From assembly GCF_018977255.1 (NCBI RefSeq), contig NW_024704742.1, positions 87,856,001-87,920,000 of the forward strand: a stretch of DNA of 64,000 nt, in the 5' to 3' direction. Positions 11,048 to 62,527 of the stretch are shown here, piece after piece. The translations under genes and the position numbers were made by a program. The notes under the pieces were generated by a model that was not told where the DNA came from, did no database searches, and saw nothing but the letters and a program-made list of their open reading frames with translations. Position 1 is the first letter of the stretch; every line of letters starts with the position of its first letter. Source of the DNA: Callorhinchus milii. Its lineage: Eukaryota.

Positions 11048-12826
11048 CTAAATGTAGAGAAAGGAAAACGTCACATTTCTAAATAATACTTGCATTTGAT
11101 ATAACCCCTTATCATGTTGTTGAGACGTCTCAAAGCACATCACAGAATATATTGTAAAATGGATTGACTGTGTATTGTGTATGACACAATCACTGTGTAA
11201 ATGATTGTGTATTTTGTGGACGAAATTTTGTTCTACAACCATTGTACAAGTCAAGCAAACATGCCATTCAGTATTTATGTTATGCAAAATTATAAACAGG
11301 CAGAAGAATAGAGCTCTTTGGAATTCTCTCCCCAAATCCTAGCATTTCACAGCACAGGAGGAGGATGTTTTGCCAATTGTGCCTGAGCTGTTTGAAATCC
11401 ATTTAAGTCCTCTATAATCAGTGCTCAAAAGTCAGTTCTATGAGGGAGCTGGAGAGAGATTAACAAATGAAAAAACATCAAAATTACTCCAAGAGAGAAG
11501 GGGAGAAAAATCTTTCTCTGAATGAATAATAATCCTTGCATTTGATATATTGTTTTATCACATTGTTGAGACGTCTCAAAACGCTTCACAGAATATATTG
11601 TAAAGTCTGTGTATTTTGTGTCAGCCAATTGCACATAGCAGTGTCCCACAAACAGCCGTGGATTGAATTACTAATATTTGTTTTGATGACTCAAAGCGCT
11701 TCACAGGATGTACTGTAAAGTGCAGCAACTATGTATTTTGTGGGCGACAATGTCCCATAAACAACTATAAAGTCAATGAACAATTTTATTTACCTCTAAG
11801 ACATCGTGAGTAATTTGATGGAATGAAATTGTGTCATATAATCGGAAAGGTCAATCCATTAATACGGAGCATAAGAACCTCAGTGTATAAGGGCAGATCG
11901 AGTTCATGAAAGATATTCCTGGGCAGAATTTAAACCTGGAGCAGTAATAATCTTTAAACATATCTCTTGGTCTTGTAAGGTTAATATATTTGAATAAATC
12001 TGTTTCGATCCAAATTTAAAATACAACGACATCAAGAATCAGTAGGAGAGGTTTAAATGGAACATTGTAACCCTGATTAGGAGACAATGTATTCCCAAAT
12101 TTTGCATTTGATTTTGCACTTTTAATACTAAAACATCTTGAAGTGCTTCAAAGGAAATTACTGCCAAGTGTAGTGATTGCTTTTGAAGGCCAACGTTACT
12201 GTCAGTCTGCATACAGCAGTCTCATGAAGTGGCCAGGATGTCGGGAGAAAGTTCCTTTTTTTTTGCCATAGGATCTTTAATGTCCATCTGAACAGGCAGA
12301 CTGGACTTTGGATTAACATCTCTTTTGAAGAACAGCATCTCCAACAATTAACTACTCCCCAGTACTGCCTTGGAGCGTCAACAAAAGCAAATTACATTTG
12401 TATAGCGCCTTTTGCGTCGGGAGGATGTCCCAAGGCGCTGGACAGTCAAGGATTTGGACCCGAGCTGGGGGTTGGGATCAGGAGGGGTGGATGGCACGGA
12501 AGGTAGGGTATGGAACTTCAAGGAAGCAAGTGGGAGGGACTGTAGGATAGAGTTCCAAAGTGTGAGGGCAGAAAGAAGGCCCACCCTCCGATAGTGAGGC
12601 GGGCAGGTCAGGGGACATGAAGCAGACCAGAGCCTACTAAGCGGAAAGCAAGAGCAGATTGGTATGGAGATAGCAGGTCAGAGACAAGGAGGAGCTGTTC
12701 AGATGGACAGTGAAGGGTCAGCCTAGGCTGTGAGCTCAAGTCCTAATGTGGAGCTTGAACCCACAAGTTGCTAACCAGAGAGAAGAGTGAACCAAGCCAA
12801 GAGATAAACTAGACTCTACACATTAC

Positions 12827-13049
12827 CTTGCCTTCCTGACCTCCAGGAACAAATGTTTCTGCAGCAACGTTAGCTATAGCCTTGATCACAGGTTGCACAT
12901 CACCAAGAGCACAGCCCAGAATATCTGCTACGATGACACTGGTTGCATTGTTCATCACCACTTCACGAGCATTCTCCTGCAGGTATTCCAGTAAAGCTGG
13001 TGAAATGGCCTCCAGCAGCTCATGCCGGCGGACTTCTGCATCCTTCTTA
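12827..13049 (-). CDS. PUM3: PUM3 exon 15: (S)KKDAEVRRHELLEAISPALL...FVPGGQEGK
   Basis: Within ORF 12809..13120; actag acceptor, GTAATG donor, 223 nt, phase 2->0. Confidence 0.96.
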
Positions 13050-14183
13050 CTAGTGTAACAAAATAAATACACTATGAGAGACGCTGCAGTTATTTCTACC
13101 CTGTGCCTCAAATAAAACACACCTACAAATTTTATTACATTCTTTGGTGTCAGCCAGCTCAGTTAGCGGCACTCTCGCCTCAGAGTCAGACGGTTACGGG
13201 TGAAAGCCCCGTATCAAAACTTGGAGGTCATAAGAGTCTAAAGAGCACTGCATTGTTGGAATTGCAGTCCTTCGGATAACACATTAAACCGAGTGCAAGT
13301 CAAAGTCCTAACATGGAGCTTGACCCCACAACCTTATGATTCAAAGTCGAGAGCACTACCAACTGAGCCGGGTTGACACATCCCTTAGGCTGAAAAATAG
13401 AAAAATATAAAAAAAACAATACAAATAATCTGAGGATTCACTTGACAATTATTAAATAGACTATTTCTCAAGATTTTATCAATGGAAACATCAAAATATT
13501 CAGAAATAATTCACAATAAATGAAAGGTTCCAGATATTAAAATATACAGTGTTTGCTTTTGCAGAAGCTGCAATTTTTAATTTGCTCTTACTAACTAAAC
13601 ACCAACATAAAATAGCAAACCAATGTGATATCTGAATTAAATTACACCGGCAAATTTCAGAATTGCCATGGTTTCATCCTATTATGACTCGAAGATCTTA
13701 CAAATCTTTGTATTTAATACACAGTAACCTTATTTTAATGCGATGTTTTGGACCCAAACAATTAAGACAACCGGTCCCAATAACTGCTTCTGGGTCGTCA
13801 GGTGCTCCTAATATTCCTTCCTGTGAGACGCACACTTCCTTTACAAAGTAACATCAGCTGTGCTTCCTTCACATAGCAAGTAATGCACAGGAAGTGATCT
13901 CAGCAGAGCCCAGACAACTTTGAAGGTGGCCATTTTTAGTATTGGAAGTTGGGAGTACTGTGCCTCCAGGGAAGTGTGCAGTGCAGACAACTGTAGGCAA
14001 ACCTGAATTCAGCCAAAGCACATTCAAACGGGGGCAGGGGTGTCTGCACATGCACAATCCTCAAGTTAAATGATCGTTTCAAAACAGTTCCATTAAAACT
14101 AAGAGAAAATCCTGAGATTGAAGATCAGAAGTACTTGTCCCTCGTTTGCTGCCACAAGAAATATAACGAATACCCACCCTTAC

Positions 14184-47211: not shown

Positions 47212-47224
47212 TCACTCGTAAGAA
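47212..47224 (-). CDS. CARM1L: Candidate CARM1-like terminal coding bases (S)SYE*, followed by 3' UTR with AATAAA at 47010-47005
   Basis: catcaacag acceptor after a pyrimidine-rich tract; phase-2 join gives FFSSYE*; alternative endings exist. Confidence 0.4.
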
Positions 47225-48225: not shown

Positions 48226-48315
48226 CTGAAGAAGGGATTCTTTAAGTCTAGTATGTTGCCAGACTTGAAGCCCGTCTGGTCCACAATAGCCATGATGTGA
48301 ATGTCGTAGCTCTGT
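48226..48315 (-). CDS. CARM1L: CARM1-like exon: (R)[29 protein letters not shown]
   Basis: gtgatag acceptor, GTGAGC donor (unspliced read-through gives AGG TGA = R stop), 90 nt. Confidence 0.94.
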
Positions 48316-49815: not shown

Positions 49816-49953
49816 CTTTTATTGGCCACCAGCAGGACTCTCCCTGAGAATGTTTCTCCAGCTTTGGCAAAGAGCGGGGTCTGGAGCAGGCAACGAACCT
49901 GATACCAGTGTGTCAGGGGTTCTGTGGGAGATGTGGAAAGCCAGACTGTCTTT
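49816..49953 (-). CDS. CARM1L: CARM1-like exon: (Q)[45 protein letters not shown]
   Basis: Within ORF 49812..50030; cccatcag acceptor, GTAAGA donor, 138 nt; THW loop. Confidence 0.96.
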
Positions 49954-51593: not shown

Positions 51594-51683
51594 TGTGAGC
51601 CCACAAAGGCTACATCAAACCAGAAAGCCAAGCCGTGGACAAGACCAGACTGGAGAATGTGGAAAACAAAGGGAATCTCCATT
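51594..51683 (-). CDS. CARM1L: CARM1-like exon: (R)[29 protein letters not shown]
   Basis: ttctgcag acceptor, GTAAGT donor, 90 nt, phase 2->2. Confidence 0.95.
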
Positions 51684-52333: not shown

Positions 52334-52419
52334 CGGTGCAAATCGTCTTCTTTGGATTCCAGGAAATTCACAGTGTACTTGACAGAGCGCGCCATCAGAA
52401 TGACCACGTCAAAGGTATC
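52334..52419 (-). CDS. CARM1L: CARM1-like exon: [28 protein letters not shown]
   Basis: tgtttcag acceptor, GTGAGT donor, 86 nt, phase 0->2. Confidence 0.95.
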
Positions 52420-53105: not shown

Positions 53106-53187
53106 TACGATTGGCTGCTTGAAGTACTCTTCCACAGCCGCACTGCGGAGACTAGAGAGATTAATCCCGTGGAAACACTGTTGGTAC
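53106..53187 (-). CDS. CARM1L: CARM1-like exon: (W)[27 protein letters not shown]
   Basis: ctccgcag acceptor, GTAAGT donor, 82 nt, phase 2->0. Confidence 0.95.
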
Positions 53188-55134: not shown

Positions 55135-55225
55135 CAGAAATTGGCCCTGGTGTAATGTTCCATGTAAAGCTGCTCGTCGGAAAACGGGGCCAAATGAACA
55201 TCACCGAAGGTGGGAAACATCATCC
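55135..55225 (-). CDS. CARM1L: CARM1-like exon: (G)[29 protein letters not shown]
   Basis: ttcctcag acceptor, GTATGT donor, 91 nt, phase 1->2. Confidence 0.95.
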
Positions 55226-56782: not shown

Positions 56783-56960
56783 CGTTTGGCTTCAACCACT
56801 TTTTGGCGTGGAGATAACTCTCAATCCTCCTCTCGTGAAATAACAAATAGCCCATAGGTTCCGAGATAATGATGTCCACCTTTTCGGGGATAGAAATCTC
56901 CTCGATTTTCCCTTCCAGCACCATCACCTGTTCGGAAAGGTTATTGCTTTTCACCAGTAT
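56783..56960 (-). CDS. CARM1L: CARM1-like exon: [59 protein letters not shown]
   Basis: Within ORF 56763..56987; tcttcag acceptor, GTAGGT donor, 178 nt; double-E loop. Confidence 0.96.
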
Positions 56961-57819
56961 CTGAAGACATGAAGAGAAGAACAGCATCTCAGGACAAATA
57001 GGAGATCACAATGTCTGTTGACCAACTCACACTGTGCCGATTATAATATATAATACTCCTTGCATTTGATATAGCGCCTTATCACGTCTTCTAGATGTTT
57101 CAAAGCGCTTCACAGAATATACTTTAAAGTGAATTGACTATATATTTTGTGGGGAAACAGAAGCACAGCAGTGTCCCATAAACAATCATGGATTGAGTGA
57201 CGAAATTATTATTATTATTTTTTGGGGAGGTATTATTACTACTGGAAAAACGATCTGCCAATTGTCTGACAACCGGGTTCCTTTCTCACATTTGGTCTAC
57301 TTACATAATTTCAGTCACATTTACACTGCACCACAATAGACATTTATACTGCACCACCACTGACATACTGGGAGGCACATATACGATAAACAAACAAATA
57401 TACTACAAACAAACAAAGACTGAGAATACAAGCAAGAACATTTGAATCTCGCTCAACCTATCGCGAGTTCCTTGTATAAGATATTCACCGTCCTCAAGTA
57501 GCCCTACCAAAGTAGACCTGATATTGTAATTGTGGTTTATATAGAGCATTGACACTCACAATAAGGTTGAGTAACACACCCTGTCCGAGCTTCAGTAATT
57601 GCTCCAAACTACAAGAAGGACCATCATGGACAGGTCAAGTTACATTTCAAATCACTTTTCTCCTGAACTTTGCTCAATTATATAACCTTCATTTTCTAAA
57701 CAAAGTTACTGCTTCCAACATTTAATTCCTTGACACTAACACCCCATTTAATAACAGCACTTGCGTTTGATGTAGCGCCTTTGAATGTTCAATCGACTTG
57801 AAGTGCTTCACATTAATTA

Positions 57820-58650
57820 ACAACAACAAAATTACATTTGTATAGCGCCTTTCACACTGGGAGGACGTCCAAGGCGCTGGACAGTCATTGTTCGGACCCG
57901 AGCTGGGAGTCGGGATTAGTGAGGGTGGAGGGTGGGGGGGAAGGAAAGTGATCAAAAGCACGGTGGATTAGGAGGGTTTTGAGATGGGTCTTGAAGGAGG
58001 AAAGGGAGGGGCGAGGCAGAGGGACTGCGGGATGGAGTTCCAGAGGGTGGGAGCAGAGTGGCAGAAGTCCTGCCAATGGTGGGACAGGGGAGCCAGGGGA
58101 CATGAATCAGACCAGAGCTCGCTGAATGGAGGGAGGGAGCAGGTTGGTAGGGGGTTAGGAGGTCGCAGAGGTAGGGAGAGCAAAGCCATGGAGGGCTTTG
58201 AAAGTGAGATCCAGGATCTTGAACTGTATCCTCTGTGTGATGGGAAGCCAGTGGAGTCGGATGAGGATGGGGCTGATAAGAGTCACGGAGCCTGGTGCGG
58301 GAGAGGACACGGGCTGCAAAGTTATGGATGATCTGCAGCCTATGGAGGAATGAGTTGGAGAGGTCAACAAGCAGGGAGTTTGCGTTGTCAAGCTTGGATG
58401 TTATCAATGCGTGTATGAGGGTTTTCGCAGCCTGTGGTGTGAGACAGTGGTGGAGTTGGGAGATGTTGCGGAGGTGGGGGAAGGCAGAGCGGGTCATGGT
58501 ACGGATGTGGGGTAGAAAGGACAGTTGAGGGTCAAACAAGGCGCCAAGGTTCTGGACTGGCTTAGTAAGGTGGAGTGTGCCACTATGGATGGTGATGCTG
58601 TCAGTGCCTGAGTTGTGGAGGCGCTGACGGGAGCCAAGCAGGAGGACCTC
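57820..58650 (-). mobile_element. L2 LINE 3' fragment
   Basis: ORF 57952..58539 FDPQLSFLPHI...LIHALITSKLDNANSLL; LHWLPITQRIQFKIL. Confidence 0.9.
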
Positions 58651-61196
58651 CTAATTGGACCGAGGCCAACAACAAAAACAACTTATTATAGCATTTATAT
58701 AGCGCACTTCATGCCGGACAGGGTTCTCAGAGCACTTAATTATTAATTGCTGAATGTATATTTTTGTGGGCAAAGGCAGGAGCCAAGTAATGTCTCACAT
58801 ACAGCCTTGAAGTCAATTACTAATTTTTCTGGGGTGTTGTTGGCCATTATGACTTGAGAAATTTTCTTCTCTTTTCGAACAGTGCCATGGGATCTTCAAC
58901 ATCTACCTGGACAGGCAGATGGGACCTCAGTTTAAAGTCTCATTGAAAGGATTTTACAATCCTTTGAAAACAAAAAGCTACTAAGCTAGTCAACAATAAC
59001 TTGCACTTATTAGCTGTTTTTCAAGTTGGATGAACATCTTGAAGTGCTTAAATGAGAGACTAAACTAAGCATTGGCAGCCTGGCAAACTCAGTAGCACTC
59101 CCACCTCGGAGTCAGAAGGTTGTGGGTTCAAGCCCCATGTTGGGACTTTTAACTCAAACTCCAAGCTGCCACTCCAATGCAGTGCTCGGGGTGGGGAGGT
59201 GCTTATCGGAGGTGCCATCCTTTAGATGAGATGTAACAAATACACAGTCACTGCACTTCGCAGTAAATCCTGTGTAGTGCTATGAGATGTCCATCCCGAC
59301 ATGAAAGGCACTATATAAAAATGCACGTCTTAAGCATTGTCATCCAGAGTTGACATCTCTTTATAAAGCAAGAATGAAAAGAGGGCCTGACAGCCACCCT
59401 AGTTACAGCTTTCTCAGTAATATCTGAAGTGCAAAAAGTAATAAACAAAATAGCGGTGGGGCCAAGCCAGCAAGCTGCCTATAGGGAGAAAAGATCTTCT
59501 GTGGGATTATAATAATAACAATCCTTACATTTGAAAGAGCGCTTTACCATGTCACTGAGACATAAAATAAATACAACAAAGAAATTTTGGTGAGGCTAAA
59601 AATGTATGAAAATATATCTCAAAGTTCTTCACAGGATAGACTGTAAAGTTATGTTTATTAGATTATGGTGGTGTGAAGTACGTTTAATAATTCTTCCAGG
59701 AATGATTTCTGGCAATAAACTACAGCCTCCTTTATTCACAGTGCTGAGTGAGCCACTACATCAACCAAATGAGACAGATGTTGATATTATAAAACAGTGC
59801 AGCTGCCACAGACCAGTGCAGTCAAACAGACGACTGTGAAAACCACAGAGAAACTAGACACCGGGTGAACAGCTGCTGGCAGCAGCTAAAGGAGGCAGCA
59901 ATATCTTCACCAACTTATTGCACTAAAAGTTAAACATTTCCTTATGATATAAAACAATAATCATTGTATTTGATATTGTACTTTATTACGCTCTCCACAG
60001 CGATGAAGTGAGTGACTGATTTTATTGGGGTGATTGTTGGCAAGGACACTTCCTTCACTTTTCAAACAGTGACACGTCCACCTGAACAAGCATACAGGAC
60101 CTCGGTTTGAACCCAAGACCTCTGACTCAGAAGTGAGACTGTTACTAACTGAGCCATGCGACCATCTGCATATTTGTGTGTTTAAAGCATGTGCATGTAT
60201 ATATGCGCTTGACAGCAATTGCTCAAGACAAAGTTCTGTACGAAACGCAAGATATATCGTCAGCCGATATCCAAAGGTCTTTTGTAATGAGTTCAGTCAG
60301 GTAACTGATTTATTTCCCACCATCTCCTGCACTCGAGTGGAACAATGCTGACCAGCCAAGCTTGTTGGTATTAGTGTGATACCTGTATGTACAAAACATC
60401 TGTGAAATTTGCTTTCTTTTTAAAAAAATCGAAAACTGCAAGCCTCAAAACACACTGCGGTATCTTTCTGGAAAGGCTAAGGTCTTGGCCTGGACATCTG
60501 GAAAAGGTTTATCTTACTTCACCTTGTTGGCTGACGGCTGACAGGACTTGCCTGACCGTGAAGCCCCCTCTCCTGTAGGGCATCGGCTGCTTCCTGTTTA
60601 TTCACGTGCTCTGAGTACACGTGGTTGTGCTCGGGTTGTGGATGAGTCACATTGCTGATTCACTTGAGCAGTAGAGTGGCCAGTCCAGGCATCTAAAGCA
60701 ATGGGCTGAGAGAGGCCAGTAAACCCCCAAACTATAGTACAAGCTACAAGTGACTGCACAAGCTGTAAACCACAGCACCAGCTACTGTGGCCATGACCCT
60801 TTATAACACGGTGCTTTAAGTCCACAAAAAGAGACCTCGTGCTACACAGGTCATTTTATAATAATAATAATCCTTGCGTTTGATATAGTGCCTTATCACA
60901 TCGTTGAGATTTCTCAAAGCGCTTCACAGAATATACACAAGTGAATTGACTACATTTTGTGGGTGAAATGCGACAGCCAATTACGCACAGCAGTATCCCA
61001 CAAACAGTCATGGATTGAGTGACCAATTTTTTTTTGAAGGGCTTATGACTGACCCCCGGAAAGCGATCCATCAATCAACTAAGAACAGAGATTCTATTTA
61101 CTGTTAGGTAAACAGAGGAGTAAAGAAACTTGCCTAAGATTTCACCCTGCCTGGGAACCAAACCCAGGTCCTCCCGCTTGCTAACCACTACGCTAC

Positions 61197-61522
61197 GTGG
61201 AGTCCTGTAGCTCAGTGGTTAGAGCACTCGCTTTGCAAGTGAGAGACCTGAGTTCAATTCCAGGCAGAGGGCGAAACCTTGGGCAAGTTTCCTTACTCCA
61301 CACACCTAATAATAATACCTCCAAAACCAAAAACAATAATAAATTGGTCATTTTCAATCTATGACTGTTTGTGGGACATTGCTGTGCGCAATTGGCTGCC
61401 GCGTTCGCCCACAAATATACAGTCAATTCACTTTACAGTGTGTTCTGTGAAGCGCTTTGGGACGTCCTCCCGACGTGAAAAGCGCTATATCAAATGCAAG
61501 GATTATTATTATTATTATTATT
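61197..61522 (+). mobile_element. Young tRNA-derived SINE (short subfamily)
   Basis: Same structure, (TTA)n tail. Confidence 0.9.
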
Positions 61523-61638
61523 ACAGGACTCTATATCAAGTTGCTCCAGGACTACAGTCCGGTTCCTCAAGTCGCCAATGATCACATTAACGTGTTGCGG
61601 GGAGACTGTGTTAAAAGGTATTGCACGTGTCCGTGTTA

Positions 61639-61854
<216 letters not shown>

Positions 61855-62422
61855 TTACTGTGTGCCAGTTTACACACCGGATAGAAGGGCAGAGGAGAGC
61901 TTTGCACTTTTGTTGGCAGTTGAGGGTGGCGCTATTATGTACCTCATCTGGGCACCAACAGATGGCAGTAGAGTGATGGGGCACAGGTCTGAGGAATTCT
62001 CCACCTCAACCACAATGCTGGGCTGCTCCCCTTCATCCCACTGGTGGATTGGTAGCCCCAAAGGCTTGTGGTATAAAATAGGGGCACTGGGGAGACAATC
62101 ATGGGGACGCTTCAGAGTCAATCATGAGGGATTGTTGGGAGCCAATCATCGGGGTGCAAGACAGATAATCATGGGGTCCCTCAAGAAATGTCCCGATTTA
62201 TATAGCCAGTCCACCACTGACCACTGAAACCCCTCCGAAGAAGCTGCACTCTTTTCTCCCATCCAACAATCTATCGGTGGAATTTCCACGTGTAGGTGGG
62301 ATGCATGGAATTCTCAGTTTGGTTTGGATACTCTTAAGCATGGTGATGGGTTTCCGCATGTGTCAAGACACACTACTGACCAGATTTTTTTCCCCTCTCC
62401 TGTCAAGCTCTCCCAAACTCAC

Positions 62423-62527
62423 CTTATCTTTGAAATCCACATGGTTCTCCAGTATAGCTCTCTGGTACGTGGCTGTCCCGATATAGTCCTGCAGCGTGTT
62501 CTGTTGTTGTGATAAACAGCCATGAAA
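62423..62527 (-). CDS. CARM1L: CARM1-like exon: [35 protein letters not shown]
   Basis: ttctcttag acceptor, GTGAGT donor, 105 nt; aligns without gaps to CARM1 [35 protein letters not shown]. Confidence 0.93.

Follow-up and report, generated by a model that had tools for sequence, protein, structure and literature searches.

Several methyltransferase folds have lost catalysis and been kept as regulatory partners, among them the C-terminal pseudo-domains of PRMT7 and PRMT9, DNMT3L, and METTL14, as the accessible part of PMC10908127 describes. The PRMT7 and PRMT9 modules are old and fused in cis. A second comparison is the Trypanosoma brucei PRMT1 prozyme (TbPRMT1-PRO), a PRMT paralogue that occupies a whole gene, with its AdoMet-binding residues altered and its dimer surface kept; the available portion of its description presents it as a chaperone on which an unstable enzyme strictly depends, without the 3-10 helix (bioRxiv 10.1101/776112). 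Here we describe a candidate vertebrate case, the CARM1-like protein (CARM1L, gene carm1l) of the elephant shark Callorhinchus milii. In contrast to the PRMT7 and PRMT9 modules, it is a free-standing, lineage-restricted paralogue of a type I PRMT4, and in contrast to the prozyme it shows no deletion relative to CARM1 at that helix, carries point changes only, and has a whole motif I.

The residues at issue have assigned roles in the accessible text of the papers cited here, and we number them as in mouse CARM1, anchored on rodent CARM1, in agreement with those papers. R169 is the residue that engages the cofactor carboxylate (PMC6917500), and R169A is without activity (PMC9339313 and PMC3203945, both citing Kim 2010). 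M269 is among the main contacts of the cofactor adenosine (PMC9469100), and Met137 of TbPRMT1 is the equivalent cofactor-contacting methionine (bioRxiv 10.1101/776112); both sources bear out a preliminary description of this locus, which had placed this methionine at the cofactor pocket. Y154 packs against the cofactor and sets the orientation of E267, the substrate guanidinium is braced by M163, and the helix forming the substrate site is thought to be ordered by cofactor binding (PMC4655611).

The window that we analysed is a stretch of 64,000 nucleotides of C. milii (contig NW_024704742.1), and all coordinates below are positions within it. Its minus strand holds ten carm1l exons, all joined by GT-AG introns, which as a single solution give residues 135-461 and the stop of the C. 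milii CARM1-like record P0001. In the direction of transcription these are 62423..62527 (gene model and contigs), 61666..61776 (gene model and contig joints), and the 178-nt exon with the double-E loop, 56960-56783, which is bounded by AG and GT and has a splice joint at 56960 in three contigs. The remaining exons follow from the gene model: 55135..55225 (end of the Rossmann fold and start of the dimer arm), 53106..53187 (dimer arm), 52334..52419 and 51594..51683 (beta-barrel), 49816..49953 (with the THW loop intact at 49913-49905, read also from the codons), 48226..48315 (end of the barrel), and 47212..47224 (last coding exon, with the stop). P0001 carries PF11531 and PF22528, the CARM1 PH domain and PRMT core, with the PH exons located outside the window, and it ends in a short C-terminus with no CARM1-type tail. 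Many of the introns, with 57040-57213, 60854-61035, and 61197-61518 as examples, contain abundant dispersed SINE/LINE-like repeats of very high contig depth, which is ordinary for this genome.

The gene is a second CARM1 copy that adjoins PUM3. The translation of the double-E exon is 100% identical to the C. milii CARM1-like records P0001 and P0002 and 88-93% identical to shark and ray proteins, and in the PDB it matches CARM1 best (E about 5e-25). In trees, C. milii carm1l is sister to elasmobranch CARM1L (support 100) and apart from CARM1, of which C. milii has a separate, canonical, and intact copy (P0134). A PUM3/KIAA0020 exon (12809-13162, minus strand; match E 1.4e-23) is found downstream as the syntenic neighbour, and gar carm1l likewise adjoins pum3 according to the accessible part of PMC8042750. 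Tree grouping, PUM3 adjacency, and a PH domain and PRMT core with a short C-terminus thus all place the gene in the carm1l group. The orthologues of sharks, rays, coelacanth, gar, and tetrapods share this PH and PRMT core without a C-terminal tail, and C. milii CARM1L is 87-90% identical to the intact shark orthologues. Outside the window, the annotated C. milii model P0002 differs from P0001 in its N-terminus and in 54 extra residues that interrupt the YFxxY helix, probably a gene-model artefact.

Within the double-E exon, reading the codons confirmed that both glutamates of the loop are kept, as the preliminary description had claimed: Glu258 is GAA (56859..56861) and Glu267 is GAG (56832..56834). 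The description had also called M269R and N266H, and both codons are present, with Arg269 encoded by AGG (56826..56828) and His266 by CAC (56835..56837). Beside M269R is a change that it had not stressed, Ile270 (ATT, 56823..56825), a position at which 99% of the other 126 CARM1 and CARM1L sequences in the alignment have Leu. The exon at 62423..62527 carries Y154H (CAT, 62524-22), M163T (ACG, 62497-95), M164L, and R169G (GGG, 62479-77), and the exon at 61666..61776 carries an intact motif I (DVGCGSG, 61767-61747), E215, and A216G (61692-90). The GCGSG motif and the THW loop are intact, as had been noted.

The preliminary description had allowed that AGG might be a single-base error or a rare allele of ATG, a reading to which the single-base nature of every change lends itself. 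The exon is present in 14 of 24 listed C. milii sequencing runs (4 studies), and we compared four runs in detail, one per study, three of them picked for lowered word shares that could have marked an ATG allele; the assembly itself may derive from one of the four studies. Neither the AGG nor the CAC codon was changed in any of the four, and three further runs contain all 28 sampled words. The sole variant listed for the exon, found in three of the four compared runs, is G>A at 56808, a synonymous His change (CAC>CAT) that explains the lowered word shares. M269R is real and fixed in the runs compared, and with four studies in agreement at both codons, against the suggestion of an assembly error or a rare allele, we regard that account of Arg269 as having almost no chance of being right. 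The upstream exon showed no differences in the contigs of X6 and X14 and, in part, of X12. Contigs from three runs of three studies, which we guess to be RNA and which are not recorded as such, join 56960 to 61666 and 61774 to 62421 across GT-AG introns, and carm1l is therefore spliced. The depth of these contigs is no guide to expression level or tissue.

We then compared C. milii CARM1L with its relatives over the whole protein. An alignment of 127 CARM1 and CARM1L sequences has 162 core columns that are at least 97% conserved, and C. milii departs from only five of them: Y154H, M163T, R169G, M269R, and L270I. These five also set it apart from CARM1/PRMT4 (PDB 3b3f and 5dx0; P0134), with which it shares the fold (Foldseek E about 1e-48, 76% identity), the double-E loop, motif I, and THW. 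Four of the five departures are among 16 literature-derived pocket columns (P=3e-4), a list that is partly post hoc, as its source papers were found via these residue names. A list not chosen by these residues, the nine TbPRMT1 AdoHcy-contact columns, takes up three of the five (P=1e-3). Across the other 126 sequences, the pocket accounts for 7 of 124 departures. When the TbPRMT1 AdoHcy contacts are mapped by motif spacing, 4 of 12 are changed in C. milii CARM1L (Y154, R169, A216, and M269). As for the features of an active type I PRMT, the protein has motif I, E215, E244, the double-E glutamates, and THW (H415 and W416), as well as D191 and S272; YFxxY reads YFxxH, the cofactor-carboxylate arginine R169 is Gly, and the two active-site methionines, M163 and M269, are Thr and Arg. 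AlphaFold2 gave a CARM1 fold for C. milii with a pLDDT of 79.0; the intact shark control P0006 scored worse (71.9, with the double-E region below 50), so these models are uninformative about the pocket.

To place each change, we examined 453 fetched relatives (isoforms included), 438 of which have a residue at position 269. It is Met in 431, Leu in 3, Ala in 1, and Gly in 1, the last two being distant unnamed PRMTs (P0421 and P0447), and Arg is found only in the two C. milii records. An active orthologue with Arg269, which the preliminary description had said would count against it, was not seen in this set. All carm1l orthologues of sharks, rays, coelacanth, gar, and tetrapods keep Y154, R169, and M269, in contrast to C. 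milii. Ile270 occurs in 38 of the 438. His266 is the part of the preliminary description that did not hold as evidence of inactivity: it occurs in 49 of the 438, including three ray orthologues with an intact site, the active human PRMT6 has His at this position, and SAH binding persists in CARM1 N265Y (Kd 1.49 vs 0.77 uM), the last two as given in the accessible text of PMC7054760. The rays in question (P0003, P0004, and P0005) share N266H with C. milii and three sharks keep Asn, which indicates a parallel change or a reversal. A216G, which is also found in carp and Xenopus CARM1L, and M164L were likewise rejected as evidence, because they occur in orthologues with intact sites.

We also measured branch lengths from the chondrichthyan node for C. 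milii and five sharks and rays. The Rossmann branch is 0.098 in C. milii vs 0.012-0.044 in the sharks and rays, and the arm and barrel branch is 0.017 vs 0.046-0.102. The PH-domain branch is long (0.307 vs 0.125-0.327, with rays at 0.25-0.33). Relative-rate counts for the Rossmann part are 10-13 vs 0-4, with p<0.05 in 8 of 9 triplets that overlap and are not independent.

These rates bear on the possibility that carm1l is in early decay, that is, that selection was recently relaxed and the gene is becoming a pseudogene. Each of the five changes is a single base step from the ancestral codon, as deduced from the residue. Signs of decay are also seen in other CARM1L copies, namely Mergus P0148, whose 9 departures are scattered, and Athene P0137, and the putative human orthologue of carm1l is the pseudogene CARM1P1. 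Decay, however, predicts scattered changes, and none of the 88 conserved arm and barrel columns is changed in C. milii, in a region that has evolved more slowly than in sharks. The frame and splice sites are intact, and the one exon polymorphism is synonymous, although with n=1 it carries little weight. The slow arm and barrel thus argue against decay, which we consider unlikely, and the pattern fits a loss of catalysis with the rest of the protein kept rather than gene-wide decay as in Mergus. Catalytic changes are present in individual CARM1L copies elsewhere: E215H and H415R in Mergus P0148, E215D in Anas P0126, M163I and E267G in Athene P0137, and E267D in Xyrauchen P0146. Waterfowl CARM1L may be decaying. 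In searches at the level of 90% clusters, within which a chimaera orthologue may be hidden, we found no other holocephalan sequence among 85 hits, the best 120 of 2128, and the best 120 of 760, and all 24 listed runs are from one organism; with only one holocephalan species found, the changes are undatable.

A profile search of 50% representatives, in which we considered the best 150 of 18273 matches, identified three unnamed teleost-type proteins (P0316, P0333, and P0419) that are closest to eel and tarpon CARM1L and form one clade among teleost CARM1L. P0316 is changed at all five of the C. milii positions (Y154H, M163L, R169T, M269L, and L270M; P=7.5e-5) and P0333 at four of the five (P=0.004); P0419 is incomplete and shows no significant enrichment in the pocket (P=0.18). 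Y154H is identical to that of C. milii in two of the three. These proteins differ from C. milii in having Leu rather than Arg at 269 and in going further, as G193 of motif I is Cys in all three and THW has become TRW (H415R) in P0316 and P0333, the two that cover it. They are also more diverged, with 26/162 departures in P0316 and 29/162 in P0333, 10 each in the arm and barrel. A single origin of the C. milii protein and two of the teleost-type proteins was rejected (p-AU 0.0033), in a comparison of 14 rows with long branches under a simpler model. Judged from these alignments and trees, a fish lineage is separately changed at the same positions as C. milii, which suggests that a pseudo-PRMT state is a repeated fate of the CARM1L gene. 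A search of the ESM Atlas with P0316 returned generic type I PRMT clusters only.

Our main reading, to which we assign a probability of roughly 0.7, is that C. milii CARM1L is a retained pseudo-methyltransferase that has lost or nearly lost methyl transfer, while selection maintains its dimer arm, barrel, and PH domain, through which it would do a non-catalytic job. An intact, spliced gene in which the methyl-donor residues are changed, and in which the same positions are changed separately in fish, is probably now a non-catalytic partner protein; the pseudoenzyme idea of the preliminary description thus gains from M269R being joined by Y154H, M163T, and R169G. R169G would remove the arginine that holds the cofactor carboxylate, at the very site of the enzyme-dead R169A. 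R269 would put a positive charge in the adenosine and sulfonium subsite, which would disfavour SAM, and one of the glutamates kept close by may be its pairing partner. Against the pseudoenzyme reading, a methionine change alone need not kill a PRMT, to judge by PRMT1 M48L and M155A, which are still active with changed product ratios (accessible parts of the review PMC8619983 and of PMC10620831), and with motif I, D191, E215, E244, S272, E258, E267, and THW kept, residual SAM binding is possible.

The same kept residues could speak for a rebuilt working enzyme, in which R269 stands in for the missing R169, or in which the pocket has come to fit a different cofactor or type of product. The pocket has given up one arginine and acquired another, every acidic cofactor contact is in place together with motif I and the two catalytic glutamates, and PRMT1 M48 changes can switch product type, as PMC8619983 states in its accessible part. 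M269, however, is located at the adenosine end of the cofactor and R169 at the carboxylate end (PMC9469100 and PMC6917500, in the portions available), and Y154H and M163T would also remove catalytic geometry, given the roles set out in the accessible text of PMC4655611. The teleost-type loss of G193 and of the THW histidine points to loss rather than rebuilding, and we think a rebuilt enzyme improbable. We hold as slightly less probable still a sub-case of the main reading that the preliminary description had considered plausible, in which the old active site binds substrate arginines or methylarginines without catalysis. E258, E267, H415, and W416 are all kept in C. milii, but the idea is weakened because Y154 and M163, which build the arginine pocket and lock the substrate, are both altered, and the pocket helix is believed to become ordered when the cofactor binds (PMC4655611, accessible part). 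Arg269 may also repel or compete with the substrate guanidinium, and the teleost-type copies have lost H415.

Under the main reading of a retained pseudo-methyltransferase, the protein might form catalytically inert dimers or scaffolds, either on its own or together with canonical CARM1, and might tune or compete with CARM1 at its substrates; this is the step of which we are least sure. In PRMT1, a dimer in which one subunit is dead retains about 90% of its activity, as reported in the accessible part of PMC13571421, and a CARM1/CARM1L heterodimer therefore need not be inhibitory. C. milii CARM1 (P0134) has no pocket-residue change and no sequence sign of needing a partner. A bolder version, which we put forward only tentatively and as doubtful, is that on at least two occasions, among chimaeras and within a sublineage of teleosts, changes at the same five pocket positions made CARM1L a SAM-independent pseudo-PRMT4 and a dedicated regulatory partner in the CARM1 dimer, with R269 plugging the empty cofactor site in the elephant shark.

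In our searches of the open-access literature we found no free-standing vertebrate pseudo-PRMT4, and the accessible part of PMC5715347 has nothing on a CARM1L paralogue. What is new here is the set of separate changes at the same five positions in teleost-type CARM1L, which bears on the annotation of fish carm1l. Inactive methyltransferase partners such as DNMT3L, METTL14, and the trypanosome PRMT1 prozyme are key regulators. With 87-90% identity to intact shark orthologues and changes at five conserved positions, C. milii CARM1L is a clean natural experiment, on which one can directly test which CARM1-family roles persist once catalysis is gone and whether a CARM1 dimer is tuned by a dead subunit. 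If the bolder version above were true, the protein would be the vertebrate equivalent of DNMT3L or of the trypanosome prozyme.
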